Part shown: positions 3,353 to 62,040 of the stretch, one piece after another | How the letters are laid out: each line of letters starts with the position of its first letter | Numbering within the stretch: position 1 is the stretch's first letter | From: Litorilinea aerophila | GTDB lineage: Bacteria > Chloroflexota > Anaerolineae > Caldilineales > Caldilineaceae | Length of the DNA: 64,000 nt | Assembly: GCA_945897075.1 (NCBI GenBank) | Contig: CAMDEX010000003.1 | Coordinates: 1,940-65,939 of the forward strand | Direction: 5' to 3' | Program-made: the position numbers and the translations under genes | Notes under the pieces: model-generated | Seen by the model: only the letters and a program-made list of their open reading frames with translations | What the model was told of the DNA's origin: nothing | Databases searched by the model: none

Positions 3353-3568
3353 ATGCCCGACGAAACCGCTCCACCCCAACCCCAACCCCGCTCCCAACTC
3401 TTCACCGTGCGTCTCTGGCGCGACACGGAACAGAGCGACGCGCCCGCCCCATATATGCAGGTGCGCCACGTGCTGACCGGAGAGACGCGCTACTTCAGCA
3501 CCTGGCCGCCGGTTATTGCGTATCTGTTGAGCAAGCTGGATTCCCTGCCTTTGCCCGAAGAAACGTGA
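3353..3568 (+). CDS. small conserved-looking hypothetical protein (71 aa)
   Basis: ATG at 3353 has GGGGAG 7 nt upstream (the ORF track starts at the GTG at 3320). Sequence ..LFTVRLWRD...YMQVRHVLTGETRYFSTWPPVIAYLLSKL. A decayed duplicate lies just upstream. No named domain recognised. Confidence 0.55.
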   Translation: MPDETAPPQPQPRSQLFTVRLWRDTEQSDAPAPYMQVRHVLTGETRYFSTWPPVIAYLLSKLDSLPLPEET

Positions 3569-3657
3569 AGTGAGCAGTGAGCAGTGAACAGTGAACAGTA
3601 CTCGTGAAGACTACTTACTGATTACTGATTACTGTTCACTGATAACTGATAACTGAC
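3565..3657. repeat. palindromic short-tandem-repeat (STR) hairpin, unit TGARCAG / CTGWTHA (7 nt)
   Basis: cgTGAAGTGAGCAGTGAGCAGTGAACAGTGAACAGTA..loop..TTACTGATTACTGATTACTGTTCACTGATAACTGATAACTGAC. It begins at the stop codon of the 71-aa gene. The arms are only partly complementary. Confidence 0.8.
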
Positions 3658-3694
3658 GTGTGGCGCATTCTATTTTCCCACAGGAGGAAACCGT

Positions 3695-7244: not shown

Positions 7245-10200
7245 GTGTCAGGCAACCCAGCATTTGCCGTGGCCTATCTGCGCGTCTGCCTCTTCGGTGG
7301 GTTCAGGCTGTTCGCTGGAGAAGACACTATCTCCTCCCTGCAAGCCCCGCGCCTGCAATCCTTGACCGCCTATCTGCTCATCCACCGCGCCGCGCCCCAG
7401 AGCCGCCAACAGATCGCCTTTCGCTTTTGGCCGGAGACCAGCGACGCCCAGGCCCAAACCAATCTGCGCCAACTGCTGCACAGCCTGCGCCAGCGGCTGC
7501 CCAGGGCGGGCGACTACCTGCGCGTGGAGGAGCGCACAGCGGGCTGGCGCGGCGACGGCGACTACACGCTGGATGTGGCCGACTTCGAGCAGGCCCTGCT
7601 GACCGCCTCGCAGAGCGCAGGACAGGCCAAGATCGCCGCGCTGGAGCGGGCTGCAACCCTCTACAGCGGCGATCTGCTGCCCGGCTGCTACGACGAATGG
7701 GTCATCCCCGTGCGCGAACGTCTGGCCCAACGCTTTGTGGCCGCACTGGAAGAGCTTGTCCTGCTTTATGAAGAAGCGCGCAGCTACGCCCCGGCCATCA
7801 CCCTCGCCCAACGCCTGCTCCGCTACGACCCCCTCCACGAAGCCGCCTACCGCCATCTCATGCGTCTTTTGGCGTTGACCGGCGAACGCGCGGCGGCCCT
7901 GCGCGTCTATCACTCCTGCGTTTCGACGCTGGAACGGGAGCTGGACGTGCCCCCCAGCGCGGCCACCCAGGAACTGTATGAGCGTTTGCTGCGCGTGGAC
8001 GATATCCATACACCGCCGCGCAGCGCACAACTCCCCTTTGTGGGCCGAGAAAGCGGCTGGTCCGCGCTGCAAAGCCTCTGGCAGACGGCCAACCGGGGCA
8101 ACCTGCGTCTGGTCTGCATCGAGGGCGAAGCCGGGCTGGGCAAGACACGCCTGGCCGAGGAGTTGCTGCATTGGGCCGAGCAACAGGGCACCCCCACCCT
8201 GCACAGCCGGGTCTATGCGGCCGAGGGCGGTCTGGCCTACGCGCCGTTGGTGGAATGGCTGCGCAGCCCGGCCCTGCAACCGGCCATCGAACGGTTGGCC
8301 GCGGTCTGGCGCACGGAACTGGCCCGTCTGCTGCCGGAACTGCTCACGGCAGACCCAACGCTGCCCGCGCCCGAACCTCTGACTGAACGCTGGCAGCGTC
8401 AACGGCTTTTTGATGCCCTGGACAGGGCGATTGTGCCAGACGACCGCGCCCTGATTCTGGCCCTGGACGACCTGCACTGGTGCGACGAGGAGACGCTGGC
8501 CTGGCTGCTCTTTGTGATCCACCGCCACCCCCAGGCCCGGTTGCTGCTCATTGCCACCCTGCGCAGCGACGAATTGGTAAGCGACAGCCCCGTGGCGGAT
8601 TTTCTGCTGGAACTGCGCCGTCTCGACCTGCTCAGCGAATTGGCCCTGCCCCCGCTGGACGTGGCCGAAACCATTGCTCTGGCCGAAGCCATTAGCGAGC
8701 AAAAACTGGAGCGCGCCCAGGCGGAGCGACTCTACGCCGCCACCGAAGGCAACCCCCTCTTTGTCATCGAGACGATGCGCAGCCAGCCGAGCGGTCCGGT
8801 CAATTTCTCCAGCCCGCTGGCCCTGCCGCCCAAAGTCCACGGGGTGATCCGGGCGCGCCTGGCCCAGCTTTCCCAGCCCAGCCGGGAGTTGGCCGGGCTG
8901 GCCGCGGTCATCGGGCGCTCCTTCACCGTCGATCTGCTGGTGGCGGCCAGCGAAGAGAATGAGGAACGAGTCGTGGCTGGTCTGGACGAGCTTTGGCAGC
9001 GGCGCATTGTGCGTGTACAGGGCACAGACCGCTACGACTTCAGCCACGAGCGTCTGTGCGAAGTGGCCTACGGCGAAGTGCCACCGGCGCGGCGGCGTCT
9101 GCTGCATCGGCGGGTGGCTGGGGTGTTGGAACAACTGTACCCCGACGCGCCAGGCGCGGTCTGTGTTCGGTTAGCGCAGCATTACGAGCAGAGCGGATCG
9201 GTAGAGCAGGCCATCTTCTATTTGCAGCAGGCCGCGGTCGCTGCGCGTCAACTCTATTCCTATCGCGAGGCCATCGCCTATTTGGAGCGAGCGATCAACT
9301 TGCTCCGCTCCAAGCCTGCTGATGCCGCCGCTCTCGAACGCGAGTTGGAAGTGCAGATGGCACTCTGTCAAGACTGGACTGTCGTCACCAATCATCTGGG
9401 CGCAGAGGTCGAGGCTGCCTATCAACGGGCGCTCTACTTGTGCCGTCAGCTAGACGTTACCCCTCATCTGTTTACAGCCTATTGGGGATTGCACGAGATT
9501 GCTCTCTACCGGGGCGATTACACAGAAAGTTTGGAGCTTGCCGCCCACTGTTTGCGCATTGCGCAAGAGATGGGCGATCCGGGTCTGTTGCTGCAAGCCC
9601 ATCACGCCCTGTGGGCACCTTATCATTTTCTGGGCCAACACGCCCAGGCATTGGTCCATATGGAGGCCGGGCTTGCGCTCTATCAGCATCCTGCGCACGA
9701 AGCGCTCAGCCCCCATTACGGCTGGCACGATGCGGCCGCCTGCGCCCTGGAATTCGCGTCTCTGTCTCTCTGGCAGATCGGATTTCTTGATCAGGCCGCG
9801 CAAAGGCAGCAGCAATTGATCGAGCACGCCAATCGCTTGGCCCAGCCCGTGAACAGCGCCGACGGCTATGGATTTGCCGCGGTCGTCTACTATCTGTTGC
9901 GCACCCCAGCCTCGGCGCAAACCTATGCCGAGATGACTTTGCGCGCAGGTGTCGAGCGCGGCTATCCGGGAATACGCATTCTGGGCGCAATCTCTCTTGG
10001 TTGGAGTCTCGTCATGCAGGGCAGGCCAGGCGAGGGACTGGCCCTGATCGAGCAGGCCATTGAAGAAGACCAGGCAATGGGCCATCGTCTGCGGCAAAGC
10101 CAGAATTTTGTGATGCTGGCCGAGGCGTATCTGGCCGTGGGTCGCCCGGACGCGGCCATTGCCACTGTGGAGCGGGGCATCGACGCCTTTGTTCGCTACC

Positions 10201-10515: not shown

Positions 10516-11445
10516 TCACCCCACCGACGCCTGATACTCCTCCACTGCGCGTCGGGTTGTCATCCAATTGCGCCCGCGCTTGACCGCCTCCAACCGCCCC
10601 GTGCGCGCCAGCAGGCTCAGATATTCTTGGCTGTAGGGCGTTCCGTCTGCCGCCTCTCGCATGGAAATCCACTGCTCCTTTGCTGCTGGCGGCGCAGTGC
10701 GGGGTGTGCAAGCGTCCAGATAGAGAGTCAGGCTGCGTTCCACCGCCCGCCCTACGAAATTGACCAGCGCTGCGTCCTGATGGCTGTCGGCCTGGGCCAA
10801 CACCCGATAGTATTGTCCGCGGTTGTTCTGTTGGATGATTGTGGGCGGATAGCCCTCCTGCATCAGCAACAGATTCATCGCCAGCCGGGCCGTGCGTCCA
10901 TTGCCATCAATGAAAGGATGGATCGCCACCAATCGGTGATGGGCCAGAGCAGCCCGCGCCACCGGATGCAGGAGGCGGCTTTCGCCACCCAGCCAATCCC
11001 CCCATTCGAGCATCAACCGCTCGATCTCCCAGGCGTCGGGTGGTGTGAGAGCAGAACCAGCAATCCGCACAGGCAGGCGGCGGTATTGCCCGGCGCTGAC
11101 GTCGTCAATATGGGCCAACACCAAATGGTGAATCTGACGCACCACAACCGGCGTCAATGGCTGGTGATCTTCCACAAGTCCCTGGACAAAATGGATGGCG
11201 CTGCGATGGTTTGTCACCTCAAAATGCTCGCGCAGACTTTTGCCGCCGATGGTAAGACCCGTTTCCAGGATGAGCCGGGTCTCCTGCAGCGTCAGGGTGT
11301 TCCCTTCAATCGCGTTGGAATGGTAGGTCCACTCGATGAGTATTTCGTCTTGCAGCCGTTGCAGCGCTGCCGCTGGCAAAGGCCGCAGATCATCCAAAGT
11401 CTGCTTCTTCTTGTCAATTCGCTCTTGCAGTCGTTTTTGCAGCAT
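10516..11445 (-). CDS. Fic family protein (AMPylase-type) with C-terminal DNA-binding-like tail
   Basis: Fic motif HPFIDGNGRTARL. N-terminal inhibitory-type motif SNAIEGN. The last ~55 aa (WISMREAA...YLSLLARTGRLEAVKRGRNWMTTRRAVEEY) resemble an excisionase/MerR-type HTH. Confidence 0.9.
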   Translation of the reverse strand: MLQKRLQERIDKKKQTLDDLRPLPAAALQRLQDEILIEWTYHSNAIEGNTLTLQETRLILETGLTIGGKSLREHFEVTNHRSAIHFVQGLVEDHQPLTPVVVRQIHHLVLAHIDDVSAGQYRRLPVRIAGSALTPPDAWEIERLMLEWGDWLGGESRLLHPVARAALAHHRLVAIHPFIDGNGRTARLAMNLLLMQEGYPPTIIQQNNRGQYYRVLAQADSHQDAALVNFVGRAVERSLTLYLDACTPRTAPPAAKEQWISMREAADGTPYSQEYLSLLARTGRLEAVKRGRNWMTTRRAVEEYQASVG

Positions 11446-12850: not shown

Positions 12851-13345
12851 ATGCTCCGTCTCGATTTTCTCCTGCGCCGGATCTTCACTTCTACGGTCGT
12901 CGTGGCTGGTGTCATCACACTCACCTTTTTCGTCACGCGCATGCTGGGCTTGGGCCTGGCCTGGTGGCCGCTCTACGCCGTGCTTGTGCGGGGAGATGTG
13001 GTGCGTCTGCGTGGCCTGCCCTTTGTGGAAGCGGCCCGCTCTATCGGCGCGTCGCCCTGACGCGTCGCCCGTCGTCATCTGCTGCCCAATGCGTTGGGGC
13101 CGCTGCTGGTGCAGGCGACTGTGGATGTGGGCGCGGTGATTCTGGTGGCCTCTGGGCTGAGCTTCATCGGGCTGGGTCCCCAGCCGCCCACTGCGGATTG
13201 GGGGGCGATGATTAACAGCGGGCGACAGTTTGTGTTGAGCGGAAGTTGGTGGGTGGCCGGTTTCCCCAGCCTGGCAATTCTGCTCACCGCGCTGGCCTTC
13301 GCCACGTTGGGGGATAGTCTGCGTGCGACAGCCGATCCTCGTTGA
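12851..13345 (+). pseudogene. chimeric ABC peptide-transporter permease remnant (OppB/DppB N-terminus fused to OppC/DppC C-terminus, with an in-frame TGA)
   Basis: MLRLDFLLRRIFTSTVVVAGVITLTFFVTRMLG is an OppB-type N-terminus. LRGLPFVEAARSIGASP*RVARRHLLPNALGPLLVQATVDVGAVILVASGLSFIGLGPQPPTADWGAMI...GDSLRATADPR is an OppC-type C-terminus. The two ORF-track pieces (12851-13060 and 13094-13345) share a frame and are split by the TGA at 13058-13060. Confidence 0.75.
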
Positions 13346-13398
13346 CGAATCCGACCCACTGAACATCGCGCATGTCTGATTCTGTCTTGACTTTTTTG

Positions 13399-13407
13399 TG
13401 ATATACT
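13399..13407 (+). promoter_or_regulatory. candidate extended -10 promoter element for the PIN TA pair
   Basis: TGATATACT, with TTGACT a little upstream (spacing is too short for a canonical -35). Confidence 0.3.
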
Positions 13408-13447
13408 CAAATCAATGGCAAAAACGCAATGGATGAAGGAGGAGAGA

Positions 13448-13726
13448 ATGAACTATAGCGAACGCGCCCTGCTCGTTACAGCGGTTGGCGATGACCGCAC
13501 GATTGTTTTGCCCGCCAGTATTCCCAGAGGAGCTACAATCGGGATTGTGGTACTGTCGAATCCTCCCGCACCGGAATTGAGCCGCAAAGCCCGTTTCAAA
13601 GCTGCGCTGGCCGAAATCGAAGCAGCCATTGTACACAGCGAACGCCAGCCGATCCCAGTGCTTCCTGACGCCGAGTTCAACGCACTGATCGAACACGCTC
13701 GTAAAGATTCAACTCCGCTTGAGTGA
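13448..13726 (+). CDS. putative antitoxin partner of the downstream PIN toxin
   Basis: ATG at 13448 preceded by GAAGGAGGAGAGA (the ORF track starts at 13415). Small acidic protein that ends 12 nt before the PIN gene. No named domain recognised. Confidence 0.55.
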   Translation: MNYSERALLVTAVGDDRTIVLPASIPRGATIGIVVLSNPPAPELSRKARFKAALAEIEAAIVHSERQPIPVLPDAEFNALIEHARKDSTPLE

Positions 13727-13737
13727 CAATACCCCAA

Positions 13738-14157
13738 ATGCGCATCGTTCTTGACACGAATCAACTGGTTCGTGCGTTGGCACGCCCACCTGAACTCGCC
13801 ACATTTGTGATGGCGTGGGCTTCTGCGCGCTTTACTGTGGTATGTTCTGATCAGTTGCTCGACGAATACGAGCAGGTGTTGCTCCGGGATTATGTGCGCG
13901 TGCTTGTTTATCCAGAGTCGGTGCGGGCATTTCGGAACTATCTGGTTGACGCGATTGAGATAATTGGTTTGGGCGCGTTTCCAGCCGTATGTCGCGATCC
14001 GGACGACGACAAAGTTGTTGCCACCGCGATACAAGGACAGGCCGATTACTTGTTGACGGCTGATGAAGACATTCTGGCCGATGAGGTAGCGCTGTTGTTG
14101 ACCCGGGCTGGCATCCGAATGATGACGATTGACGAATTGGTGGCGCGGTTAGGTTAA
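13738..14157 (+). CDS. PIN-domain toxin (putative toxin-antitoxin system toxin component, PIN family)
   Basis: MRIVLDTNQLVRAL...VVCSDQLLDEYEQVL...CRDPDDDKVVATAIQGQADYLLTADEDIL shows the typical PIN acidic residues. Confidence 0.85.
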   Translation: MRIVLDTNQLVRALARPPELATFVMAWASARFTVVCSDQLLDEYEQVLLRDYVRVLVYPESVRAFRNYLVDAIEIIGLGAFPAVCRDPDDDKVVATAIQGQADYLLTADEDILADEVALLLTRAGIRMMTIDELVARLG

Positions 14158-14173
14158 GGATAAGGAGTCAATA

Positions 14174-14410
14174 ATGACGCTAAGAACTACCATCTACTTA
14201 GATGACGACGTTGTGGAGCGAGTCCGTCGTTAAGTTCCCCCGCGCGGACTCAGCCAACTGGTCAATCAGCTATTACAACAAAGAGTGGCGGAGCTTGAAC
14301 AATCTGAAATTGAAGCGCAGATGCGTGAAGGCTATCTTGCCACCCGTGAGGATCGCGTTCTGTTGTCTGAGGAGTGGCGGAGCATCGACGGAAAAGGATG
14401 GCCGGCATGA
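14174..14410 (+). pseudogene. MazF-associated antitoxin gene interrupted by an in-frame TAA (codon 20)
   Basis: SD AAGGAG then ATG at 14174. Reads MTLRTTIYLDDDVVERVRR-TAA(14231-14233)-VPPRGLSQLVNQLLQQRVAELEQSEIEAQMREGYLATREDRVLLSEEWRSIDGKGWPA in one frame. Its TGA overlaps the mazF ATG (ATGA at 14407-14410). Confidence 0.65.
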
Positions 14411-14811
14411 ATCATCCGCAACGGGGCGAAATCTACTGGGTAAACCTGGACCCAACCATCGGCTCCGAAATCGCCAAGACGCGGCCCGCCGTAATTATTT
14501 CCAATAACGTCGGTAATCAATACGCCGAACGGGTCATCGTCGCTCCACTGACAACGGCCAATGTTGGCAAAGTCTACCCCTTCGAAGTGAAACTGGAAGC
14601 GGGTGAGGGAGGCATTGCCCAAACCAGCAAAGTTTTGCTCGATCAGATTCGCACAGTTGACAAGAGCCGCCTGGGGCAAAAGTGGGGATGCTTCCGGCAG
14701 CTCGTGATGCGATCCCAATCGTTTTGCGTCACACCAAAGGGGCCGTCACAGATGTTCAGATCAACCGAATTTTTGAGAACGCTGGACAACGATTCCAACG
14801 CGTCTCCTTGA
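14407..14811 (+). CDS. mazF: MazF/PemK-family endoribonuclease toxin whose native C-terminus is replaced (probably non-functional)
   Basis: MNHPQRGEIYWVNLDPTIGSEIAKTRPAVIISNNVGNQYAERVIVAPLTT...SKVLLDQIRTVDKSRLGQKWG is canonical MazF for ~95 aa. From about nt 14695 the ORF runs antisense through a methyltransferase gene fragment and loses similarity. Confidence 0.7.
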   Translation: MNHPQRGEIYWVNLDPTIGSEIAKTRPAVIISNNVGNQYAERVIVAPLTTANVGKVYPFEVKLEAGEGGIAQTSKVLLDQIRTVDKSRLGQKWGCFRQLVMRSQSFCVTPKGPSQMFRSTEFLRTLDNDSNASP

Positions 14812-14837
14812 TACATCTGATTTCGTTCCAGCTTCAT
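14705..14837 (-). pseudogene. N-terminal remnant of a DNA methyltransferase-like gene
   Basis: MKLERNQMYQGDALESLSSVLKNSVDLNICDGPFGV resembles the N-terminus of N4/N6 DNA methylases (..GD.LE.L..L...SVDLI.TDPPY), with a degenerate DPPY motif. It stops where it meets mazF. Confidence 0.35.
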
Positions 14838-14955
14838 CTTTTTGCTCCCTTCTGGACGCAACGGTTTAGAGCCAGTTCCCTTTCCTCTTCATCCTACACC
14901 CCCGAAAAGCATAAAACATACGTTCGTGATCGGCAACCTTCACTTCCGTATCGGA

Positions 14956-17238
14956 TCACCCTATACCCGACGCGACAAGTAAGGATTCTGGTTTGCGTTT
15001 TCGTTGCCAGTTGTCTGCTTCGCCTGTTGACGGGTGTAACACCGGCGCCACAAACACCTGTGCGTCATAAAAGCACGCGCCGCCGCCCATATCCGCCTCG
15101 TCCTGGCGCGTAATCTGGTTGATGTTGCGCCCATCCGGGCTGTGGCTGGCCCACCAGATTCCGGGGGCCAGCACAGTGCCGGGGATCAGATCGTCGGTCA
15201 CCCGCGCCGTCAGTACAACTTCCCCCAGCCCATTCCACACCCGCACAGTGTCGCTATCCCCAATCTGCCGCGCCGCCGCATCCAGCGGGTGCATCTGCAA
15301 CACCGGCTCTTTCTCCCGTCCGCGCAGCCGATCCACCACCCCAAAAGAGGTGTTGAGAAAGGAGTGGGCGGGGGGAGAGATGCAGATCAGGGATTGGGGA
15401 TTGGGGACTGGCGACTGGGTTGCTGACGACGAAACTTCTTCCCAATCCCCAGTCCCCAGTCCCCGTTCCCCAATCCCCGATCCCGGCAGCGGATCATACC
15501 CATCCGCCGCCATGCGCTGGCTGTAAAATTCGCATTTGCCGCTGGGGGTGGGATAGTTGCCCTGGGCAAAGGGCAGGTAGGGGTCGGGCAGGTTGAGCCG
15601 GGCGAAACCGTCAGCCAGAAGTGTGTCCCAGCCGCAGGTGGCAAATTCAGGCCGGGTCTGGGCCTCGATGAGCGTGCGCAGAATCGTCTCGTCGTCCTCG
15701 CGAAAGCAGCCGTCGCTGTAGCCCAGCGCCCCGGCCAGGCGGCGAAAAATTTCGCTGTTGGGCAGGCTCTGGCCCAGCGGCGCAATGGCTGGGCGGTTGA
15801 GGGAGAGGTAGTTATGGCCGTAGGCCCGGTGCAGATCCCAGTGTTCCAATTGGGTGGTGGCGGGCAAAATGTAGTCGGCGTAGTTGGCGGTGTCGGTCTG
15901 GAACTGTTCCAGGACAACAGTGAAAAGGTCTTCGCGCCCCAAGCCCGCCAGCACAGCGGACTGGTCCGGGTTGGCCGCGGCCGGGTTGGCGTTGTAGACG
16001 ACCAGCGCCTTCAGCGGCGGGCCGATCTCCGCGCCGGTGGGGATGGCGTCAATCGGGCGCGGGCGGTAGTGGGAAAGGGCAATGCGCGCCGGGTCCAGAG
16101 CGAGAGCGTCGCCCAGCCGGTTCATATTGATCGTGCGCGCTGTGGGGTCGCGGCGCAGATCGGGCCGTTGCAGACCCGTCACATCCAGGCGGCGGAAGCC
16201 GCCGCTGGCGCTGAGTTGGATGCCGCCACCGCGCTCCCGCCAGCTCCCCACCAGCGCGGGCAGGCAGGCGACTGTGCGCATCGCCATCCCGCCGCCGGCG
16301 TGACGCTGCATCCCGTAGTTGATGCGGATGGCCGCGGGGCGGGTGGTGGCATATTCCACAGCCAGGGAGCGAATGCGGGCCGCCGGGATGCCGGTAATGG
16401 CTGCGGCTCGCTCCGGTGTCCACTCTCGCACTCGCTCGGCCAGTTGTTCGTAGCCGACGGTGTACTTGTCCACATAATCAGCGTCGTGCAGAGTCTCCCC
16501 AATAATTACGTGCATCATTGCCAGGGCCAGCGCGCCGTCCGTGCCGGGGTGGATGGGCAGCCACTCGTCCGCTGCTCTGGCTGTGCGGGTGCGGGCGGGA
16601 TCGATGACGATCACCCGCGCCCCCTCTTTGCGCGCCGCCTGGATGAACTGCCAGAGGTGCAGATTGCTGGTCAGGGTATTGCTACCCCAGATCAGAATCA
16701 GGCGGGCGTGGGCGAAATCTTCCGGCGCTGTGCCCAGCGTTGCGCCCAACGTATACAGATAGCCCTCGAAACCCGCCTCCGAACAGATGGTGCGCGCCAG
16801 TTTGGACGCGCCTAGCCGATTGAAAAAGCGGGCGGCCATGCCCTCGCCCTGCAAATAGCCCAGCGTGCCGCTGTAGGAGTAGGGCAACACCGCCTGGCTG
16901 CCCCACTCCTCAACGATAGCGGAGAGGCGGTTGGCAATCTCGCCCAACGCCGTACCCCACGTCACTGGCTCGAAGCGCCCGCTCCCTTTCGGCCCAACCC
17001 GGCGCAGGGGCGTCGTCAGTCGCCCGCTGTGGTAGGTGCGCTCCAGATAGCGGTCCACCTTGCCACACAGCGCGCCCTGGGTGATGGGGTGGCTGGCGTT
17101 GCCCCAAATGGCGATGGCCGCGCCGCTTTCCCGCTGCACAGCCACCTGCCAGGAACAGGTGTCTGGGCAGTCGTGCGGACATGCCCCAGTGACAACACGC
17201 ACGGATGGGTCGTTGGCGTAGAATTCAAGACGGGACAT
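14956..17238 (-). CDS. molybdopterin-dependent oxidoreductase (MopB/DMSO-reductase superfamily, substrate unknown)
   Basis: Start refined to the ATG at 17238 ([11 protein letters not shown].., SD GGAGGG 8 nt upstream); the ORF-track start at 17379 reads through a repeat. 4Fe-4S motif [11 protein letters not shown]. Molybdopterin-binding core, and a C-terminal MGD-binding barrel ([34 protein letters not shown]). Confidence 0.9.
15388..15485. repeat. palindromic STR hairpin (GGGGAYT / ARTCCCC heptamers) located in frame inside the molybdopterin oxidoreductase CDS
   Basis: cagGGATTGGGGATTGGGGACTGGCGACTGGG-ttgctgacgacgaaacttctt-CCCAATCCCCAGTCCCCAGTCCCCGTTCCCCAATCCCCGATCCC. Translated on the minus strand as [31 protein letters not shown]. 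Confidence 0.9.
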
Positions 17239-17254
17239 GGCTATACCCTCCGGG

Positions 17255-17337
17255 TGGGATAGGAGATTGGGGATCGGGGATTGGGTAGTAACGACGAATC
17301 CCCAATCCCCAGTCCCCAATCCCCAGTCGCTAATCGC
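17255..17337. repeat. palindromic STR hairpin (GGGGAYT family) in the 5' leader of the molybdopterin oxidoreductase gene
   Basis: TGGGATAGGAGATTGGGGATCGGGGATTGGG-tagtaacgacgaat-CCCCAATCCCCAGTCCCCAATCCCCAGTCGCTAATCGC. The loop shares ACGACGAA with the intragenic copy. Confidence 0.9.
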
Positions 17338-17403
17338 AACTCGCCCGCTGAGTGTACCAGCAGTGGAGGGCGTTGGCAAAAGGCAATTCTCCAGCGTTGC
17401 TTC

Positions 17404-17418
17404 TGTGCAAGTTGCACA
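17404..17418. promoter_or_regulatory. 15-bp perfect palindrome in the divergent Mo-oxidoreductase / glnA control region
   Basis: TGTGCAAgTTGCACA. Confidence 0.4.
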
Positions 17419-17489
17419 AGAAAAGTGATATATGTATGGACAGATGTAACAATAGCATTTTTGTACATTTGTTTGTATAATTCTTCACG

Positions 17490-17505
17490 ATGTCCGTGGG
17501 GACAT
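17490..17505. promoter_or_regulatory. 6-bp inverted repeat with 4-nt spacer ~65 nt upstream of glnA-1, just after a TATAAT hexamer
   Basis: ATGTCCgtggGGACAT. ttgtataat lies at 17473-17481. Confidence 0.3.
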
Positions 17506-17569
17506 CTATTGGTTTTTTAGGGTAGGCAGATGGCATCATCTGTAGTCATCCAGGAAAGGAATTCCGCAC

Positions 17570-18985
17570 ATGCCTTTGAACTGTACTTCTGCGGCGGATG
17601 TGGCGCAGGCCGTTGAGGAAAATGGCATTCAGATTATCGATCTGCGTTTTACTGACGTCTACGGCCAGTGGCAACATTTTTCGCTGCCGGTGGAAGCCTA
17701 CGACGAGGACGACCTCTTCAAGAATGGCCTGGGCTTTGACGGCTCGTCCATCCGCGGCTTCAAATCAATCGAGAGCAGCGATATGCTCTTGGTCAGTGAT
17801 CCAAAAACAGCCTTCATCGATCCCGTGACCGAGCATCCCACACTTTGTCTGATCGGCAATGTCATTGACCCGATCACAAAGCAGCCCTTTGACCGCGACC
17901 CGCGCAATGTGTTGATGCAGGCCGACGCCTATATGAAATCAACCGGCATCGCCGACACCGCATTTATGGGGCCGGAATCCGAATTCTTCATCTTTGACCA
18001 GGTGAAGTACGAGACGGGCCGCTACTCGGCCAGCTATGCGGTGGACAGCGTGGAAGCTCCCTGGAATTCGGGTGAATGGAGTTCCGGCCACAAAGTGGGC
18101 TACAAAGCCGGCTACTTCCCGGTCTCCCCCTACGACACCCTGCAGGATGTGCGTTCGGAGATGGTGCGCACAATGATCAACGCGGGTCTGCCCATCGAAA
18201 AGCATCACCACGAGGTCGCCACCGCCGGCCAGACCGAAATCAACCTGCGCCCCCGCCCTATGCTGCAACAGGCCGACAATGTACAGTTGTACAAGTACAT
18301 TGCCAAGAATGTGGCTCTGCAATACGGCAAGACGGCGACCTTCATGCCCAAGCCCCTCTTCGAGGACAACGGCTCCGGTATGCACACCCACCAGAGCCTG
18401 TGGAAAGATGGCAAACCCCTCTTTGCCGGTGACAAATATGCCGGTGTCAGCCAGGAAGCCATCTGGTACATCGGCGGCATTCTGAAGCACATCAACAGCC
18501 TGCTGGCCTTCTGCGCCCCCACCACCAATAGCTACCGCCGTCTGGTGCCTGGCTACGAAGCGCCCGTCGTCATCGCCTATTCGGCCCGCAACCGCTCGGC
18601 TGCCTGTCGCATTCCGGTGGGTGCCGATTCGCCCAAATCCAAGCGCATCGAGTTCCGCTGCCCGGACCCGGCGGCCAACCCCTATCTGGCCTTTGCCGCG
18701 ATGGTGATGGCCGGTCTGGACGGTATCAAAAACCAGATCGACCCCGGCCTGCCCTCGGAAATGGATCTCTTCGAGGGCGAGACTCTCAAGCACGTACGCA
18801 CGGTGGAGGGTTCTTTGGACGCTGTGTTGAAGGCGCTGGAAGCCGACAACGACTACCTCACGGCTGGCGGCGTCTTTAGCCAGGGTCTTTTGGACACGTA
18901 TATCAGCACCCGCCGCCTGGCGGACGTGGACGCTGTGCGTCTGCGCCCCCATCCCCACGAGTATGTGATGTACTTCGGCGTCTAA
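17570..18985 (+). CDS. glnA: glutamine synthetase, type I
   Basis: 471 aa. Typical GSI blocks (FTDVYGQWQHF, GFDGSSIRGF, GPESEFFIFD, NGSGMHTHQSLW, NSYRRLVPGYEAPV, RIEFRCPDPAANPYL). Confidence 0.95.
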   Translation: MPLNCTSAADVAQAVEENGIQIIDLRFTDVYGQWQHFSLPVEAYDEDDLFKNGLGFDGSSIRGFKSIESSDMLLVSDPKTAFIDPVTEHPTLCLIGNVIDPITKQPFDRDPRNVLMQADAYMKSTGIADTAFMGPESEFFIFDQVKYETGRYSASYAVDSVEAPWNSGEWSSGHKVGYKAGYFPVSPYDTLQDVRSEMVRTMINAGLPIEKHHHEVATAGQTEINLRPRPMLQQADNVQLYKYIAKNVALQYGKTATFMPKPLFEDNGSGMHTHQSLWKDGKPLFAGDKYAGVSQEAIWYIGGILKHINSLLAFCAPTTNSYRRLVPGYEAPVVIAYSARNRSAACRIPVGADSPKSKRIEFRCPDPAANPYLAFAAMVMAGLDGIKNQIDPGLPSEMDLFEGETLKHVRTVEGSLDAVLKALEADNDYLTAGGVFSQGLLDTYISTRRLADVDAVRLRPHPHEYVMYFGV

Positions 18986-18996
18986 GGATGTTTCTA

Positions 18997-19060
18997 CCTT
19001 CCGGGAAGCGGCCAGAACAACTTCCCTACGCCTTTGATTTTGTGGCCGCTTCCCGGAAGG
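18997..19060 (+). other. 17-bp perfect inverted repeat with 30-nt loop just after glnA-1
   Basis: ccttccgggaagcggcc ... ggccgcttcccggaagg. Confidence 0.7.
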
Positions 19061-19093
19061 TTGATTCCTAAACTTCCATCTGTTGAAAATTCA

Positions 19094-19130
19094 AGAGAGC
19101 AGCAGCGTCAGGCTGCTGCTCTCTTTTTTC
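19094..19130 (+). terminator. intrinsic terminator between the two glnA genes
   Basis: agagagcagcagc-gtcag-gctgctgctctct followed by TTTTTTC. Confidence 0.85.
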
Positions 19131-19197
19131 TGGCGGCAATGGCCTTTCGGTGATACAATTGAGTTATCTTTGTCGGGTATAGCAGACGGGGGCAAGC

Positions 19198-20559
19198 ATG
19201 CAAAGCGAGGCAATAGCAAGCGAAAAACGCCGGCAACGGTTGGCCGCCATTGATGAAGTTGTCAAGCGTGCGGACATTCGTTTCGTGCGTCTTCAGTTCA
19301 GCGATATTGTGGGCAGCGCCAAACAGGTGACCATCCCCATCAGCCATTGGGACGATGCGGTGGAAAACGGCGTCTGGTTCGACGGCAGCGCGGTGGAAGG
19401 CTTCGCCCGCGTGGCCGAGAGCGATATGTATCTGGTCGTCGATCTGGAAACCTTCGCCCCCATTCCCTGGGAGATGGAGCTGTCCACGGCGCGGGTGATC
19501 TGCGATGTCTACACGCCGGACGGCACGCCTTTTGTGGGCGACCCCCGTTTTGTGCTGAAACGCCAGTTGGAGCGGGCCGCCCAGATGGGCTACGAATTTA
19601 TGATCGGCCCGGAAGTCGAGTTCTTCCTCTTTCGCCCCCACCGGGATGGCGCGCTGCTCCCTTTGCAGCCCCACGACGAAGCAGGCTATTTCGACGTTAG
19701 CACCGATCTCTCGCACAGCGTGCGCCGCCAGATGATTGATGCACTGGCCGCGCTGGGCATCAAAATCGAGGCGTCCCATCACGAAGTCGCCAGCGGGCAG
19801 AGCGAAATTGACTTTCAGTACGGCCCTGCGCTCTCCATCGCCGACTATACAATGACAGTGCGCATGACGCTGAAGGCCATCGCCCAGAAGAACGGTCTGC
19901 ACTGCACTTTCATGCCCAAACCCATCACAGGCATCAACGGTTCCGGTATGCACGTTCACCAGAGCCTGTGGCACAAAGGCGAGAACCGGACGGCGATGTA
20001 CGACGCCGAGAACGATTACGACTTGAGCCAGCTTGCGCTCCATTTTATCGCCGGCCAGTTGGCACACGCCAAAGCCATGACGTCAATTTTGGCCCCGCTG
20101 GTCAACAGCTACAAACGGCTGGTGCCGGGCTACGAAGCGCCGGTCTACATCTCGTGGGGGCGCACCAACCGCAGCGCGCTGATCCGCATCCCGCGCGCCT
20201 CGCGTGGACGCGCCCAAAGCACCCGTTGCGAGCTGCGCTGCCCAGACCCCAGCGCCAACCCCTACCTAGCCTACGCAGTCATGCTGGCTGCCGGGCTGGA
20301 CGGCATCGAACAGCGTATGACCCCGCCCGCGCCGACGGAAGAAGACCTCTTTCAGGTGGACGGAGAACGGACTGGCCTGGAAATGTTGCCCGGCAGTCTG
20401 GGCGATGCGCTGGATGCGTTGAAAGAGGATGTCGTCATCCAGGAAGCCCTGGGCCAGCACGTCTACGAACGCTACGTGGAGGCCAAGCGTCTGGAGTGGA
20501 ACGACTACCGGATTTTTGTGACCCAATGGGAGTTGAACCGCTATTTGACGATCTATTGA
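19198..20559 (+). CDS. glnA: glutamine synthetase family protein, second type-I paralogue (shorter, alpha-like)
   Basis: 453 aa. FSDIVGSAK, FDGSAVEGF, GPEVEFFLF, NGSGMHVHQSLW, NSYKRLVPGYEAPV, CELRCPDPSANPYL. Confidence 0.9.
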   Translation: MQSEAIASEKRRQRLAAIDEVVKRADIRFVRLQFSDIVGSAKQVTIPISHWDDAVENGVWFDGSAVEGFARVAESDMYLVVDLETFAPIPWEMELSTARVICDVYTPDGTPFVGDPRFVLKRQLERAAQMGYEFMIGPEVEFFLFRPHRDGALLPLQPHDEAGYFDVSTDLSHSVRRQMIDALAALGIKIEASHHEVASGQSEIDFQYGPALSIADYTMTVRMTLKAIAQKNGLHCTFMPKPITGINGSGMHVHQSLWHKGENRTAMYDAENDYDLSQLALHFIAGQLAHAKAMTSILAPLVNSYKRLVPGYEAPVYISWGRTNRSALIRIPRASRGRAQSTRCELRCPDPSANPYLAYAVMLAAGLDGIEQRMTPPAPTEEDLFQVDGERTGLEMLPGSLGDALDALKEDVVIQEALGQHVYERYVEAKRLEWNDYRIFVTQWELNRYLTIY

Positions 20560-20560
20560 T

Positions 20561-20646
20561 AGGGGACTGGGGATCGGGGATCGGGGATTAGGCGGACTGC
20601 TCCGATCCCCGCTCCCCAGTCCCCTATCCCCTATCCCCTATCCCCA
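20561..20646. repeat. palindromic STR hairpin (GGGGAYT family) between glnA-2 and xpt
   Basis: AGGGGACTGGGGATCGGGGATCGGGGATTAGG..loop..CCGATCCCCGCTCCCCAGTCCCCTATCCCCTATCCCCTATCCCC. It starts 1 nt after the stop codon. Confidence 0.9.
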
Positions 20647-20667
20647 ACTGACCGAAGGAGAGTCGCG

Positions 20668-21258
20668 GTGAAAGCACTGGTCGAACGCATCCGCAAGGAA
20701 GGGCGCAATTTGGGGCGGGGTATCTTGAAGGTGGACGGCTTTATCAACCACCAACTGGACCCGGTTCTGACCACAGCGATGGGCCAGGAATTTGCCCGGC
20801 GCTTCTCTGCGGCCGGTGTGGAAAATGTGACAAAAATTGTCACGGCGGAGGTGAGCGGCATTGCCCCCGCGCTGACCGCGGCGATCGTCTACGGCGTGCC
20901 GGTGGTCTATGCTCGCAAACACCGCCCCATCACAATGCCCGACGGCTTCTACTCCTCTGCCGCGCCCAGCCACACCAAAGGCGGCATTGTCCAATTGATG
21001 ATCTCGCCGGAATACCTGACCGCGAGCGACCGGGTGCTGCTGATTGACGACTTCCTCGCCACAGGCAAGACGATCTCGGCGCTGGCAGATGTCATCGGCC
21101 AGTGCGGGGCCACCCTTTGCGGCATTGGCTGTCTGGTGGAGAAATCCTTCGAGTCTGGCCGCCAGCGGCTGGAACATCTGGGCGTGCCGATTGTCACCCT
21201 CGCCATCATAGACAGTATGGAAGGCGACACTATCGTCGTGCGCGATCCAACAGCCTGA
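20668..21258 (+). CDS. xpt: xanthine phosphoribosyltransferase
   Basis: GTG start with SD GAAGGAGAG. LKVDGFINHQLDP...VTAEVSGIAPAL...VLLIDDFLATGKT PRPP-binding motif. Confidence 0.9.
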   Translation: MKALVERIRKEGRNLGRGILKVDGFINHQLDPVLTTAMGQEFARRFSAAGVENVTKIVTAEVSGIAPALTAAIVYGVPVVYARKHRPITMPDGFYSSAAPSHTKGGIVQLMISPEYLTASDRVLLIDDFLATGKTISALADVIGQCGATLCGIGCLVEKSFESGRQRLEHLGVPIVTLAIIDSMEGDTIVVRDPTA

Positions 21259-23484: not shown

Positions 23485-23611
23485 GACGTGAGACGTGAAG
23501 GCGTGAAACGTGAAGGCGTGAAACGTGAAGGCGTGAAACGTGAAACGTGAAACGTGAAACGTGAAACGTGAGATCAATTGATGATCTCACGTCTCGCGCT
23601 TCACGTTTCGC
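23485..23611. repeat. asymmetric palindromic STR hairpin (GTGAAAC 7-mers and GTGAAGGC 8-mers)
   Basis: The left arm has ~12 units, including a 15-nt super-unit GTGAAGGCGTGAAAC x3 followed by GTGAAAC x4. The loop is gagatcaattgatgatctc. The right arm is only ~3 units (CACGTCTCGCGCTTCACGTTTCG). Confidence 0.9.
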
Positions 23612-25968: not shown

Positions 25969-26072
25969 ATGGGGATTAGGGACTGGGGACTGGGGACTGG
26001 GGACTGGCGATCGGTCAGTCGCATCCCCAGTCCCCAGTCCCCAGTCTCCGATCCCCATTCCCCATTCCCTAA
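25969..26072. repeat. palindromic STR hairpin (GGGGAYT family) between dnaJ and the phosphatase gene
   Basis: ATGGGGATTAGGGACTGGGGACTGGGGACTGGGGACTGGCGATCGG..CATCCCCAGTCCCCAGTCCCCAGTCTCCGATCCCCATTCCCCATTCCC. Confidence 0.9.
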
Positions 26073-26079
26073 TCATCCA

Positions 26080-26832
26080 ATGCCACATCTCTCTTGGGAC
26101 GCTTGCTACAACGCCAGAGACCTGGGCGGTCTGCCCGTCACCGACGGTGGACAGATTCGCCCTGGCGCGCTGATCCGCTCAGACATCCTCTCCCGGCTTA
26201 CCCCCGCAGGCAGGCAGGCACTCATCAATTACGGGGTCAAAACCGTCATTGATCTGCGTATGCCCGAGCAGATCGCCGAAGAGCCATCGGCTTTTGTCGC
26301 CGACCAGCCCAAACCGGGTGAACCGGCCTACCTCATCTTGCCCGTGGAAAATCCCAGCTCCCCCCACTTCGCCACAGTGGACAACGCGTCCAGCCGGGCC
26401 GAGAATTACTGCCTGATGCTGGAACACTTTCAACCGCAGTTTGCTGCCATTGTGCGCGCCGTGGCCGATGCGCCAGCGGGTGGCGTGCTGCTGCACTGTC
26501 ACGCGGGCAGGGATCGCACGGGTGTCGTCATTGTCCTGCTGCTGGGGTTGGTCGGCGTGCCCAATGGGGAGATCACGGCGGATTATGCGGCCAGTGAAGA
26601 ACGGCTCTGGCCCCTCTACCACCGGATGGAAGCAGAGGCAGCGGGTGACCCGGTGAAACTGGCCGCGATTCAACGCCAAAAACCCATTGCGTTGCCGGAG
26701 ACGATGCAGGCTGTGCTGGATCATCTGCAAGCGAGCTACGGCGGTGTGATGAAATATCTGTTGGCCACAGGGCTGAGAGAAACCGAGTTGGCGCGCATCC
26801 AAGACCGGCTGGTGGAGAGGCGCAGCAGATGA
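26080..26832 (+). CDS. protein-tyrosine phosphatase family protein (Y_phosphatase3-like)
   Basis: Start refined to the ATG at 26080; the ORF-track start at 25969 reads through a repeat. CX5R active site HCHAGRDRTG. N-terminus NARDLGG...IRPGALIRSD. Confidence 0.85.
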   Translation: MPHLSWDACYNARDLGGLPVTDGGQIRPGALIRSDILSRLTPAGRQALINYGVKTVIDLRMPEQIAEEPSAFVADQPKPGEPAYLILPVENPSSPHFATVDNASSRAENYCLMLEHFQPQFAAIVRAVADAPAGGVLLHCHAGRDRTGVVIVLLLGLVGVPNGEITADYAASEERLWPLYHRMEAEAAGDPVKLAAIQRQKPIALPETMQAVLDHLQASYGGVMKYLLATGLRETELARIQDRLVERRSR

Positions 26833-32861: not shown

Positions 32862-33030
32862 AACGTGAAGACGTGAAGACGTGAAACGTGAAGACGTGAA
32901 ACGTGAAGACGTGAAACGTGAAGACGTGAAACGTGAAGACGTGAAACGTGAAGACGTGAAGACGTGAAACGTGAAGACGTGAAACGTGAAAGTACGTCAC
33001 ATAAACTCACGTTTCACGTTTCACGTTTCA
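32862..33030. repeat. strongly asymmetric palindromic STR hairpin (15-nt super-unit GTGAAGACGTGAAAC)
   Basis: ~130 nt of alternating GTGAAGAC/GTGAAAC units, a short loop (gtacgtcacataaact), and a right arm of CACGTTT x3. Confidence 0.9.
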
Positions 33031-33180
33031 GATGCTTGGCCGACCGACTAACGCTTGTGCGTTAGTTCCTCGCTGGTACGGAGTAAGGTGGTGATGACAC
33101 AGCGTTGCGTGCAAACCAGGCCAGTGAGCGCTGATTGAGTAGCCGTCAGAATCCTACGGATTCTGCGTCTTCGAGGCGTA

Positions 33181-33358: not shown

Positions 33359-33377
33359 ATTCACGTTTCACGTTTCT
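33359..33377. repeat. orphan CACGTTT arm fragment
   Basis: attCACGTTTCACGTTTCtc. Same unit as the right arm ending at 33030, separated from it by ~330 nt. Confidence 0.6.
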
Positions 33378-33461
33378 CGCCCCACCCAATCACTCTAACC
33401 ATCGCACCAATCACGACATACATCTTCCATTCCGCACTCTGCATTCCCCATTCACAGGAGG

Positions 33462-39368: not shown

Positions 39369-39446
39369 TATTGGGTATTGGATATTTCGTAGTCAAACGG
39401 CGGCGCGCCCCAACGAAATACCCAATACCCAATATCCAATACCCAC
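39369..39446. repeat. palindromic STR hairpin, unit ATTGGGT / ACCCAAT
   Basis: ctATTGGGTATTGGATATTTCGT..loop..ACGAAATACCCAATACCCAATATCCAATACCCA, immediately followed by AAGGAG and the ATG at 39459. Confidence 0.9.
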
Positions 39447-55620: not shown

Positions 55621-55690
55621 AAGGGTTTCCTTGTGCGTGGCGCGTGGCGCGTAAAACAGTGTAGCCGACAGCCAAAGGTGCGGGCCGAAA

Positions 55691-55759
55691 GGTGAAGCGT
55701 GAAACGTGAAACGTGAAACGTGAGGGTATGTGACTTGAATTCACGTTTTACGTTTCACG
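55691..55759. repeat. palindromic STR hairpin (GTGAAAC family) between two minus-strand oxidoreductase genes
   Basis: GGTGAAGCGTGAAACGTGAAACGTGAAACGTGAGGgtatgtgacttgaatTCACGTTTTACGTTTCAC. Confidence 0.9.
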
Positions 55760-58472: not shown

Positions 58473-59054
58473 ATGCCCACGCCAACCCGCCAGGAAGCCT
58501 ACGCTCTGCTCTGTGAATGGGTAGAATCGGAAAGCCTGCGCCGCCACAACCTGGCCGTGGAAGCGGCCCTGCGCGCTTATGCCCGTCATTACGGCGAGGA
58601 CGAGGAACTCTGGGGGCTGACCGGGCTACTCCACGACCTGGACTACGAACGCTGGCCCGATATGGACGACACGCAAAACGGCCATCCGCGCACGGAGCTG
58701 CGTCTCTTTCGCGAACGGGGCTACCCCGCCGCACTGATCCACGCCGTGGAAGCCCACGCCACTTTTCTGGGCGTGCCGCGTATCTCCCAATTGGACAAGG
58801 CGCTGCTGGCCTGTGACGAGCTGACCGGACTGATTCTGGCCTGCGCCTATGTGCGCCCGGACAAAAATCTGCGCGATGTGGGGGTCAGTTCGGTCAAAAA
58901 GAAATGGAAAAACCGCAAATTTACCGAAGCCATTGACCGCGACGAGAACGAACACTTCATTGCCGAGCTGGGCGTGGACTTCGACGAACACGTGGGGCGG
59001 GTTCTGGCGGCTATGCAAGAGGTGGCAGAGGCGTTGGGGGTGGCGGGGGAGTAG
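58473..59054 (+). CDS. HD-domain phosphohydrolase
   Basis: 193 aa. LRRHNLAVE...LTGLLHDLDYE HD signature. Confidence 0.8.
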   Translation: MPTPTRQEAYALLCEWVESESLRRHNLAVEAALRAYARHYGEDEELWGLTGLLHDLDYERWPDMDDTQNGHPRTELRLFRERGYPAALIHAVEAHATFLGVPRISQLDKALLACDELTGLILACAYVRPDKNLRDVGVSSVKKKWKNRKFTEAIDRDENEHFIAELGVDFDEHVGRVLAAMQEVAEALGVAGE

Positions 59055-59113
59055 GGATTGGGGATTGGGGACTGGGGATTGGGTGTCAAGTCCCGATCCC
59101 CAATCCCCAATCA
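59054..59113. repeat. palindromic STR hairpin (GGGGAYT family) between convergent HD and GT2 genes
   Basis: TAGGGATTGGGGATTGGGGACTGGGGATTGGGtgtcaagtCCCGATCCCCAATCCCCAATCA. It touches both stop codons. Confidence 0.9.
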
Positions 59114-62037: not shown

Positions 62038-62040
62038 CTG

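Follow-up and report, generated by a model that had tools for sequence, protein, structure and literature searches.

A Heptamer Hairpin within a Molybdopterin Oxidoreductase Gene

The window analyzed here is a stretch of 64,000 nucleotides from Litorilinea aerophila (Chloroflexota, Caldilineaceae; GenBank assembly GCA_945897075.1, contig CAMDEX010000003.1, positions 1,940 to 65,939), and all positions below are counted from its first letter. Its minus strand carries a molybdopterin oxidoreductase gene (14956–17238) that is crossed in frame by a hairpin composed of an inverted pair of GGGGAYT heptamer arrays (15385–15485), while a sibling hairpin of the same type lies in the 5′ leader of the gene (17255–17338, minus strand). 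The open reading frame (ORF) was open throughout, from the ATG at 17238 to the stop codon at 14956, and encodes 760 amino acids, of which residues 586–616 (31 residues) are specified by positions 15391–15483 within the repeat. These observations bore out an original prediction made from the letters of the window, according to which the frame continues uninterrupted across the palindrome, the repeat is translated as 31 residues between two blocks conserved in the enzyme family, and a second copy precedes the same gene; the leader copy was found to end 16 nt upstream of the ATG. A longer version of the ORF, beginning at an upstream TTG (17379), is possible. We took 17238 as the true start, because a Shine-Dalgarno sequence recognized by reading the DNA, GGAGGG (17246–17251, minus strand), is located 7 nt 5′ of this ATG and because the N-termini of homologues, which begin with MSRLEF or MSKL, agree with it.

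The product has the N-terminal 4Fe-4S cysteine motif, the molybdopterin domains, and the C-terminal barrel binding molybdopterin guanine dinucleotide (MGD) that are expected of a Mo/W-bis-pyranopterin guanine dinucleotide enzyme of the DMSO reductase superfamily. Pfam matches were Molybdop_Fe4S4 (residues 14–70), Molybdopterin (73–503), and Molydop_binding (617–721), and residues C20, C24, C28, and C58 were invariant in the homologue alignment. An AlphaFold2 model built with 58 homologues had a mean predicted local distance difference test score (pLDDT) of 84.5 and a predicted template modeling score of 0.86, and Foldseek compared it with acetylene hydratase, perchlorate reductase, formate dehydrogenase H, and the nitrate reductase Nap at TM-scores of 0.72–0.78. 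All NCBIfam matches lay under the family cut-offs. The nearest named relatives were metagenome-assembled genomes (MAGs) of Litorilinea aerophila (87% identity) and of other Caldilineaceae.

The intragenic palindrome consists of two 35-nt arms, 89% complementary to each other, and a 28-nt loop. Read on the mRNA strand, the G-rich 5′ arm (15448–15482), with about six G-tracts, is translated into 14 residues, the loop (15420–15447), which holds TTCGTCGT, is translated roughly as EEVSSSAT, and the C-rich 3′ arm (15385–15419) is translated into 11 residues. The units are GGGGATT, GGGGACT, GGGGAAC, and GGGGATC, about six in the 5′ arm and about five in the 3′ arm; they alternate between the endings ATT, ACT, AAC, and ATC, and the longest perfect run comprises two units (GGGGACTGGGGACT). 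The RNA was predicted to fold with −75.5 kcal/mol, compared with −46.9 ± 4.1 kcal/mol for shuffled sequences (z = −6.96), and none of 200 shuffles folded as well. By sequence alone, the mRNA-sense 5′ arm also has a G-quadruplex (G4)-type motif of six G3–4 tracts separated by 3-nt spacers. The encoded peptide is rich first in Gly, Asp, and Trp and then in Pro, Ser, Gln, and Asn, and the heptamer-derived GDWGLGI and SPIPNPQ are the only peptide motifs that recur. Arrays of GGGGAYT are free of stop codons in all six frames, and three units make seven codons. We considered whether the stop-free property is special to this unit and rejected the idea, as 50% of all heptamers share it; the property is permissive only.

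In the AlphaFold2 model, residues 590–609 had pLDDT values below 50, residues 579–616 formed coil, and the Molydop_binding domain began directly afterward, at residue 617. On the basis of these pLDDT values, the secondary structure, and the domain boundaries, the repeat peptide is predicted to be a disordered stretch directly before the C-terminal MGD-binding domain, in agreement with the surface loop between the catalytic core and this domain that had been proposed from the sequence. A second public assembly (L091; ENA ERZ27280297, contig k141_453177) matched the window at every position (100% identity) along 2,694 nt, the repeat among them, and the in-frame allele is therefore not a one-off assembly artefact. 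The L091 contig, assembled from short reads, breaks off at its 5′ end within the leader hairpin, suggesting that assemblies break at such hairpins.

Heptamer Arrays Elsewhere in the Window

The leader copy lies between the Shine-Dalgarno sequence and a promoter-like site, TTGCCA-17-TGnTACACT (17351–17379, minus strand), and its predicted fold had an energy of −63.7 kcal/mol (z = −4.9). The promoter-like site was recognized by its match to the consensus and by conservation, its −10 block (GCTGGTACACTC) being conserved in most orthologues; with the transcription start deduced from it, the leader hairpin would stand at the beginning of the transcript. The sequence GGGGAYTGGGGAYT, allowing at most one mismatch, occurred 24 times in the window against 0.10 expected, and all occurrences fell within five palindromes. 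Besides the two copies in the oxidoreductase gene and its leader, these are a palindrome that begins 2 nt past the stop codon of the second of two tandem glutamine synthetase genes (20562–20648), one between the stop codon of a DnaJ gene (25965) and the probable start, ATG 26081, of a gene of the tyrosine phosphatase family (25971–26075), and one between convergent genes for an HD-domain protein and a family 2 glycosyltransferase, overlapping both stop codons (59047–59116). The ORF called at 25969–26832 exemplifies the spurious ORFs that gene callers give across such hairpins: its first ATG reads through the palindrome, and the real start is probably ATG 26081.

Three of the five GGGGAYT loci in these 64 kb lie 0–8 nt from a stop codon, and one is in a 5′ leader. 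The five copies share the heptamer alone, with unrelated loops and lengths of 63–105 nt; on reading their sequences we saw neither common termini nor duplicated flanks at any of them, and no transposase was seen near any copy in the window. No U-tract follows any of the five palindromes, and a terminator scan of 14700–17700 reported none at either copy in this gene. A role of the post-stop copies as intrinsic terminators was rejected for this lack of a U-tract. An Rfam search in E-value mode (13000–21000) returned far-sub-threshold matches to eukaryotic miRNA hairpins, which were rejected as generic hairpins.

A scan of the window for period-7 self-similarity found 20 arrays, compared with 0.15 expected in shuffled sequences, at about 12 loci and with several heptamer types. 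Several of the non-GGGGAYT loci are likewise inverted pairs, including the palindromes of the CAGTGAR/CAGTAAT type (3565–3658, intergenic) and of the GTGCGTG type (61922–62039; GTGCGTG also occurs at 55631). A single array of six GTGAAAC units is located at 23529–23574 (intergenic), with related arrays at 33005–33033, 33359–33380, and 55631–55725, the GTGAAAC/CACGTTT type being found at 23529, 33005, 33359, and 55691, and a TGGGTAT-type array lies at 39413–39445. According to the ORF map and Pfam, all period-7 loci except 15385–15485 are intergenic, in the typical case shortly after stop codons, between convergent genes, or in leaders.

The original prediction had also noted a sequence shared by the loops of the two copies of the oxidoreductase gene. 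The octamer ACGACGAA (plus strand) was indeed present in both loops, at 15426 and 17291. As proof of kinship between the two copies it was set aside as being of doubtful significance, given that the window holds it seven times, counting both strands, and that the orthologous loops of relatives lack it. The intragenic copy of the window also has a uniquely extended 5′ arm and loop. The shared ACGACGAA and the extended arm could be due to recent local conversion between copies 1.8 kb apart, or to coincidence.

Lineage-Specific Origin of the Linker

We compared 120 aligned homologues, together with 65 orthologous loci, at the position of the repeat. A conserved segment of 22 residues, TYxPPRESxxSxPxLAxRYPLA, forms the linker in distant outgroups (Gemmatimonadota, Blastocatellia, and others). 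In Nannocystaceae and repeat-free Caldilineales, the linker consists of 16–22 unconserved residues, for example TYTPPIWQRNAVATADLV. By the same measure, the linker of the window comprises 33 residues, all of them palindrome-derived, and the ancestral start of the linker, TY(T)PP, has been overwritten by the repeat instead of the repeat having been inserted into the linker. The original prediction had regarded the approximately 31 residues as a lineage-specific, repeat-derived expansion of a variable inter-domain linker, and this was supported by the alignment, in which repeat-free orthologues were shorter and dissimilar at this position and none had a linker of the same length and similar sequence. 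A repeat-type peptide occupied the linker in every orthologue with at least 80% identity (P0001–P0014). The intragenic copy was already present in the common ancestor of the Litorilinea-like clade (at least 80% protein identity).

Turnover of Hairpins at Fixed Sites

The DNA of eight close orthologues was aligned with that of the window over the hairpin region (nine sequences), and the hairpin was positionally homologous in all nine. Identity was 87–88% in the coding flanks, 65–67% in the arms, and 44% in the loop, the hairpin evolving much faster than the DNA on either side. Within a genome, the two arms were nevertheless 90–100% complementary in six of the nine genomes, though the units differ between genomes. 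The intragenic unit was GGGGAYT in the window and in L083, L001, and L089, TGGGTAT/TGGATAT in L081, where at least 21 nt were perfectly complementary, and TGAAGAT/TGGAGAT in L084. The hairpin had decayed in L082 and L088, with 62–67% complementarity and z values of −3.7 and −0.2, and the gene was intact in both. Loops were recognizably related within subsets of the genomes, such as L083/L001/L089 and L084/L088. The CAAT core of the units kept its register from genome to genome, and compensatory changes were present in 8 of the 41 consensus pairs. The elements were 85–112 nt in length and all in frame, the L089 element being longer than that of L083 by 21 nt, that is, three units or seven codons. 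Taken together, this is a pattern of concerted evolution at a fixed site, with joint change of the units of an arm and of the two arms.

The other sites showed similar behavior. Orthologues of the leader copy were found in L083, L001, L081, L084, and L088, with drifting units, and the copy was degenerate or absent in L089, L082, and L085; the unit type of the leader was uncoupled from the intragenic unit type of the same genome. At the site after the second glutamine synthetase gene, the window (20562–20648) and L089 (1673–1775) share a GGGGAYT hairpin with a homologous loop. The same site holds a CAGTRAT-type heptamer hairpin with remnants of GGGAAGT/CTTCCCC at its base in L083 (6476–6582) and other, non-heptamer hairpins in L081 (6435–6556) and L082 (6643–6730). 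On this comparison, hairpin positions are more stable than hairpin sequences.

A different, MITE (miniature inverted-repeat transposable element)-like palindrome with the ends GCGGACGCAGAT...ATCTGCGTCC was noticed at different intergenic sites in L083 (between 7943 and 8288) and L081 (between 6435 and 6556), and was absent from the window at the corresponding sites.

Recurrence in Other Lineages and Proteins, and Polarity of the Arms

Recurrence was judged on a neighbor-joining tree of the 65 orthologues, a strong hairpin being one with z ≤ −6 relative to shuffled sequences. Strong hairpins at the linker were found in at least four separated groups with unrelated units, represented by the window clade, L002 (CGGGAAA type, −59 kcal/mol), L039 (GGGGCGA type, −59 kcal/mol; TYTPP is overwritten there as well), and L052 (GGGGTYA/GGGGGTT type, −75 kcal/mol). 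Unpaired period-7 arrays occurred at the linker in L034, L040, L024/L073, and L003/L041.

We also scanned 1.45 Mb, comprising the window and the fetched loci (L001–L089), for heptamer elements spanned by long ORFs. In L015, from the Chloroflexota MAG BroJett021, a MutS gene is crossed in frame by a TGGAGAT palindrome (1631–1739), whose stem pairs perfectly over about 27 bp and which lies inside the MutS_III match, and the oxidoreductase orthologue of the same locus has a second repeat-derived insert site (11060–11200) between RPELLAR and a further block of 10 residues. Single heptamer arrays were found in linkers of an FtsK-like protein and an ALDH fusion. In MutS homologues from other Chloroflexota, this loop is occupied by palindrome-like peptides that differ from it. 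No near-identical empty site was found for the MutS insert, the best match of a fragment search being 64% identical, and the insertion boundaries were thus not definable. Many of the Chloroflexota MutS matches (P0241–P0360) were fragments of 250–560 residues on long contigs of up to 2 Mb, suggesting that MutS gene calls are split or frameshifted in these MAGs.

A model repeat peptide was searched against 5.8 billion proteins for other hosts, and the best 120 of 742 matches were all ORFs of 37–91 residues without a Pfam domain. Because they are short and lack Pfam domains, and because those inspected were on AT-rich contigs, they were rejected as gene-calling artefacts across intergenic palindromes. 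On one such contig (L090; ENA ERZ25039592, contig_6388; 28% GC), 20 kb contained five perfect (GGGGATT)n-GGGCCC-(AATCCCC)n palindromes, for example at 10024–10140, each of which had been called as a small ORF; the contig had one weak match to a PAH domain.

In all 18 heptamer palindromes with G/C-skewed arms (for example, 3565–3658, 17265–17328, and 61922–62039 of the window), the G-rich arm was 5′ of the C-rich arm and none was reversed; the 18 include orthologous copies, with about 13 independent loci estimated, and the order holds on both strands by symmetry. The five perfect palindromes of L090 also have the G-rich arm first. This polarity agrees with the convergent layout reported for Xanthomonas. 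It suggests that the process behind the hairpins has a direction, or that synthesis of the G-rich arm ahead of the other is selected.

A Frameshifted Allele

The reading frame was lost inside the repeat in one close relative (P0057, 82% identity), whose domain IV can still be read, intact and conserved, in the +1 frame. Three Logan assemblies contain this allele as an identical stretch of 2,256 nt; their runs may come from a single community, and an artefact of assembly is possible. The P0057 element is 77 nt long, 8 nt shorter than that of L001 and 14 nt shorter than that of L083, and thus does not differ from them by exactly one unit. In-frame elements were read in the DNA of the other eight close orthologues, and protein alignments placed the remaining close relatives in frame as well. 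We treated frameshifting as an occasional cost of carrying the repeat and not as a demonstrated function.

Neighboring Genes and Signals

Two tandem glutamine synthetase paralogues (17570–18985, 471 residues, and 19198–20559, 453 residues) lie divergently upstream of the oxidoreductase gene, and this synteny is kept across the clade. Between the first of them and the oxidoreductase gene there is a perfect inverted repeat, TTGTGCAACTTGCACA (17404–17419, minus strand), that all nine orthologous regions retain with no more than a single substitution. By its appearance it looks like an operator of the CRP/FNR/NtcA type; if it is one, this would hint at control of the molybdenum enzyme by nitrogen and perhaps at a role similar to that of a nitrate reductase. 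A canonical intrinsic terminator (AGAGAGCAGCAGC...GCTGCTGCTCTCTTTTT) is located 3′ of the first glutamine synthetase gene, at about 19080–19130, and this terminator between the two genes was kept in all relatives examined (L081, L082, L083, L085, and L089). Its conservation contrasts with the heptamer hairpins, which evolve fast and have no U-tract.

Origin and Maintenance of the Hairpin

We consider it fairly probable that the intragenic repeat is a simple-sequence hairpin that renews itself, belongs to a genome-wide class, and is tolerated by its host protein as a passenger linker. Each element of this class is built from a G-rich tandem array of a 7-nt unit on the 5′ side and, converging on it from the 3′ side, an array of the complement, and one copy now makes up the disordered linker (586–616) before the C-terminal MGD-binding domain. 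Units would be gained and lost through slipped-strand mispairing in a 7-nt register, and intramolecular template switching (palindrome correction or conversion) would carry changes from one arm to the other, so that the hairpin may renew itself at the DNA level. The protein would need only an open frame, and selection would keep length variants in multiples of 3 nt, leaving the peptide as a tolerated passenger in a structurally permissive inter-domain loop. Several observations weigh against this explanation. Slippage and template switching were deduced from the pattern of change alone, and among the genomes available there was no near-identical pair of an empty and a filled site, so that the boundaries of the original event are not visible. 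The same few heptamer types occur at unlinked loci and in distant phyla, and the CAGTRAT hairpin of L083 after the second glutamine synthetase gene resembles replacement by a family member, through mobility or gene conversion, more than gradual drift, which suggests such replacement as the main alternative to turnover in place. Hairpins persisting at the same sites could also reflect selection for RNA or DNA structure.

Among the competing explanations, an ordinary ancestral linker that is palindromic by compositional coincidence has already been refuted and retains a negligible probability. Linkers vary in all lineages and are commonly of low complexity, but no shuffled sequence folded as well (z = −7), the 24 motif matches compare with 0.1 expected, the GGGGAYT unit recurs at four intergenic sites of the window, and repeat-free orthologues are shorter and unrelated in sequence. 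Nor did our data favor the contingency locus that the original prediction had envisaged, in which gain or loss of a 7-nt unit would reversibly switch the enzyme ON and OFF under selection. The unit is not a multiple of 3 and lies inside an ORF, and the P0057 allele, identical in three assemblies and with domain IV conserved in the other frame, implies a recent shift. Phase variation is nevertheless very unlikely, considering that the arrays, imperfect and short, have no long perfect tract and never more than two identical units in succession, that the in-frame state prevails among the close orthologues at the DNA and protein levels, that the window allele is identical in a second assembly, that the length difference of P0057 (−8 or −14 nt) is no clean single unit and may come from assembly, and that the gene encodes a cytoplasmic metabolic enzyme instead of a surface or restriction-modification function. 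Rehm et al. were likewise negative on phase variation for repeats of the GGGGA(C/T)T type. A mobile miniature palindromic element of MITE, REP (repetitive extragenic palindromic), or RPE (Rickettsia palindromic element) type may alternatively have transposed in frame, with the hairpins at the same linker elsewhere being independent insertions at a hot spot. Such an origin would account for the several copies of the family, five of them in the window, for the occupation of the same linker by unrelated hairpins in at least four lineages interspersed with repeat-free taxa, for the different heptamer family at one site in L083, and for the perfect (GGGGATT)n/(AATCCCC)n palindromes in the unrelated 28% GC contig, and in-frame insertion of RPEs is a documented precedent (PMC10969869). 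However, the intragenic repeat does not appear to be a discrete mobile element of these types with a consensus, because loops are unrelated, lengths vary, and there are no common termini beyond the heptamers and no visible duplicated flanks; in addition, the copy is orthologous throughout the clade with homologous loops in subsets of genomes, its arms change in register and not wholesale, and no transposase was seen near any copy in the window. We therefore regard transposition as an unlikely origin. The earlier idea that the repeat family can invade coding DNA and be tolerated as a linker thus held for tolerance, as seen in at least three other lineages, at the second site of L015, and in the L015 MutS, and failed for invasion, with no discrete invader and a clade-ancestral copy evolving in place.

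The hairpin or a G4 may instead be a selected structure, acting as a ribosome pause at the boundary of domains III and IV for cofactor insertion or folding, or as transcript protection, with the leader and post-stop copies as 5′ and 3′ stabilizers. Ribosomes may be slowed at this boundary by the mRNA hairpin (−75 kcal/mol) or by an RNA G4, and it is plausible that the leader hairpin would stabilize the message from its predicted 5′-terminal position. The intragenic and leader structures are predicted to be very stable, complementarity has been kept through sequence turnover with compensatory pairs, several lineages carry a hairpin at this linker, five genomes carry hairpins of differing sequence at one and the same post-stop site, and the G-rich arm is always 5′, so that a G4 could form before the hairpin as the RNA is transcribed, (GGGGAYT)4 having been shown to form one in vitro. 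In contrast, the intragenic hairpin has decayed in L082 and L088 with the gene intact, many orthologues are without any hairpin, the leader copy is missing in L082 and L085, and the absence of a U-tract means that the copies are no intrinsic terminators. Selection for such a structure is accordingly given a low probability. Equally improbable in our judgment is a dedicated directional DNA process, either snap-back or template-switch synthesis on the nascent G-rich strand or an enzyme that adds or corrects 7-nt units, that would make such hairpins in distant phyla (named here are Chloroflexota, Cyanobacteria, Xanthomonas, and the 28%-GC organism), rewrite them at fixed sites, and seed linkers such as those of the molybdenum enzyme and MutS. 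If true, it would be a general and so far undescribed route of linker innovation and concerted repeat evolution. The findings described above make the origin and persistence of heptamer repeats testable at defined positions, and the intragenic locus shows a way for disordered protein linkers to be born from DNA of a non-coding type. In practical terms, such repeats break assemblies, generate spurious small ORFs, and can give frameshifted gene calls.

Comparison with Known Repeat Systems

The GGGGA(C/T)T repeats of Nostoc are presumably the same as the cyanobacterial STRR1 repeats, CCCCA(A/G)T, of Mazel et al. 1990. In Nostoc PCC 7120, 89 loci of GGGGA(C/T)T repeats have been described, 68% of them intergenic and 32% not, and the GGGAATC repeats of Xanthomonas form 70–75 convergent inverted pairs, with 7–11% of copies inside ORFs (Rehm et al. 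2015, PMC4692102). Both kinds of repeats are mostly found within 50 nt of ORF ends and form G4s in vitro, as do (GGGGAYT)4 oligonucleotides, and their function is not known (PMC4692102). The repeats of the window have the same 7-nt unit as those of Nostoc (GGGGATT/GGGGACT), arranged in tandem with at least two units. They resemble the repeats of both Nostoc and Xanthomonas in their dispersal, in being mostly intergenic and close to ORF ends (0–50 nt from stop codons, some overlapping them), in their variable unit number, in the minority inside ORFs, and in the G4 motif of their sequence, and they have the same convergent inverted-pair layout as the GGGAATC repeats of Xanthomonas. They differ from those of Nostoc in that all five GGGGAYT copies of the window are inverted pairs, which are rare in Nostoc. 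The host, a high-GC member of the Chloroflexota (Caldilineaceae), is also different from those of Rehm et al., several other heptamer types of the same build coexist in it, and neither concerted unit change at a fixed site nor recurrent occupation of a linker was described in that study. We found no report in the literature of such heptamer repeats in Caldilineae or Chloroflexota.

REPs are unique imperfect palindromes of 20–40 nt with a conserved sequence and not arrays of 7-nt tandem units. The repeats of the window resemble REPs, their bacterial interspersed mosaic elements (BIMEs), and the REPINs mobilized by REP-associated tyrosine transposases (RAYTs; PMC3116915) in that they are short, hairpin-forming, present in multiple copies, and mostly extragenic, following stop codons or lying between convergent genes. 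Unlike REPs and REPINs, however, their arms are heptamer arrays without a REP-type consensus, and no RAYT gene was seen in the 64-kb window. RPEs, of about 150 bp, are found in frame in protein-coding genes (reviewed in PMC10969869). The intragenic repeat is like them as an in-frame palindrome in a conserved metabolic gene, at a site compatible with the fold and encoding a peptide without evident function. In contrast, RPEs have a consensus over their whole length and a conserved peptide, whereas here only the heptamer is shared, with unrelated loops, variable length, and turnover in place.

The TAACTGA repeats of Beggiatoaceae and Cyanobacteria comprise 169 direct sets and one inverted (MacGregor 2015, PMC4679880), and heptanucleotide simple sequence repeats (SSRs) have been summarized as the most abundant class of long SSRs in most prokaryotic genomes (PMC4679880). 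As in the window, these are tandem 7-nt units in intergenic, gene-adjacent positions; unlike those of the window, TAACTGA arrays are direct and AT-rich and have stop codons in the forward orientation, a property discussed as constraining which orientation enters ORFs (PMC4679880). Phase-variable SSR loci, as in Neisseria and Haemophilus, share with the intragenic repeat a unit inside an ORF that is not a multiple of 3 and the occurrence of a frameshifted allele, which numbered one in our material; here, however, the units are imperfect and few, and the gene encodes a metabolic enzyme.

Taken together, G-rich heptamer repeats were already known from cyanobacteria and Xanthomonas, and in-frame palindromes from Rickettsia. 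What the present analysis adds to them is a case resolved by orthologues in a third, unrelated phylum, with a long-stable position at which the 7-nt unit has been rewritten in both arms together, a strict polarity of the arms, and the repeated colonization of permissive loops.

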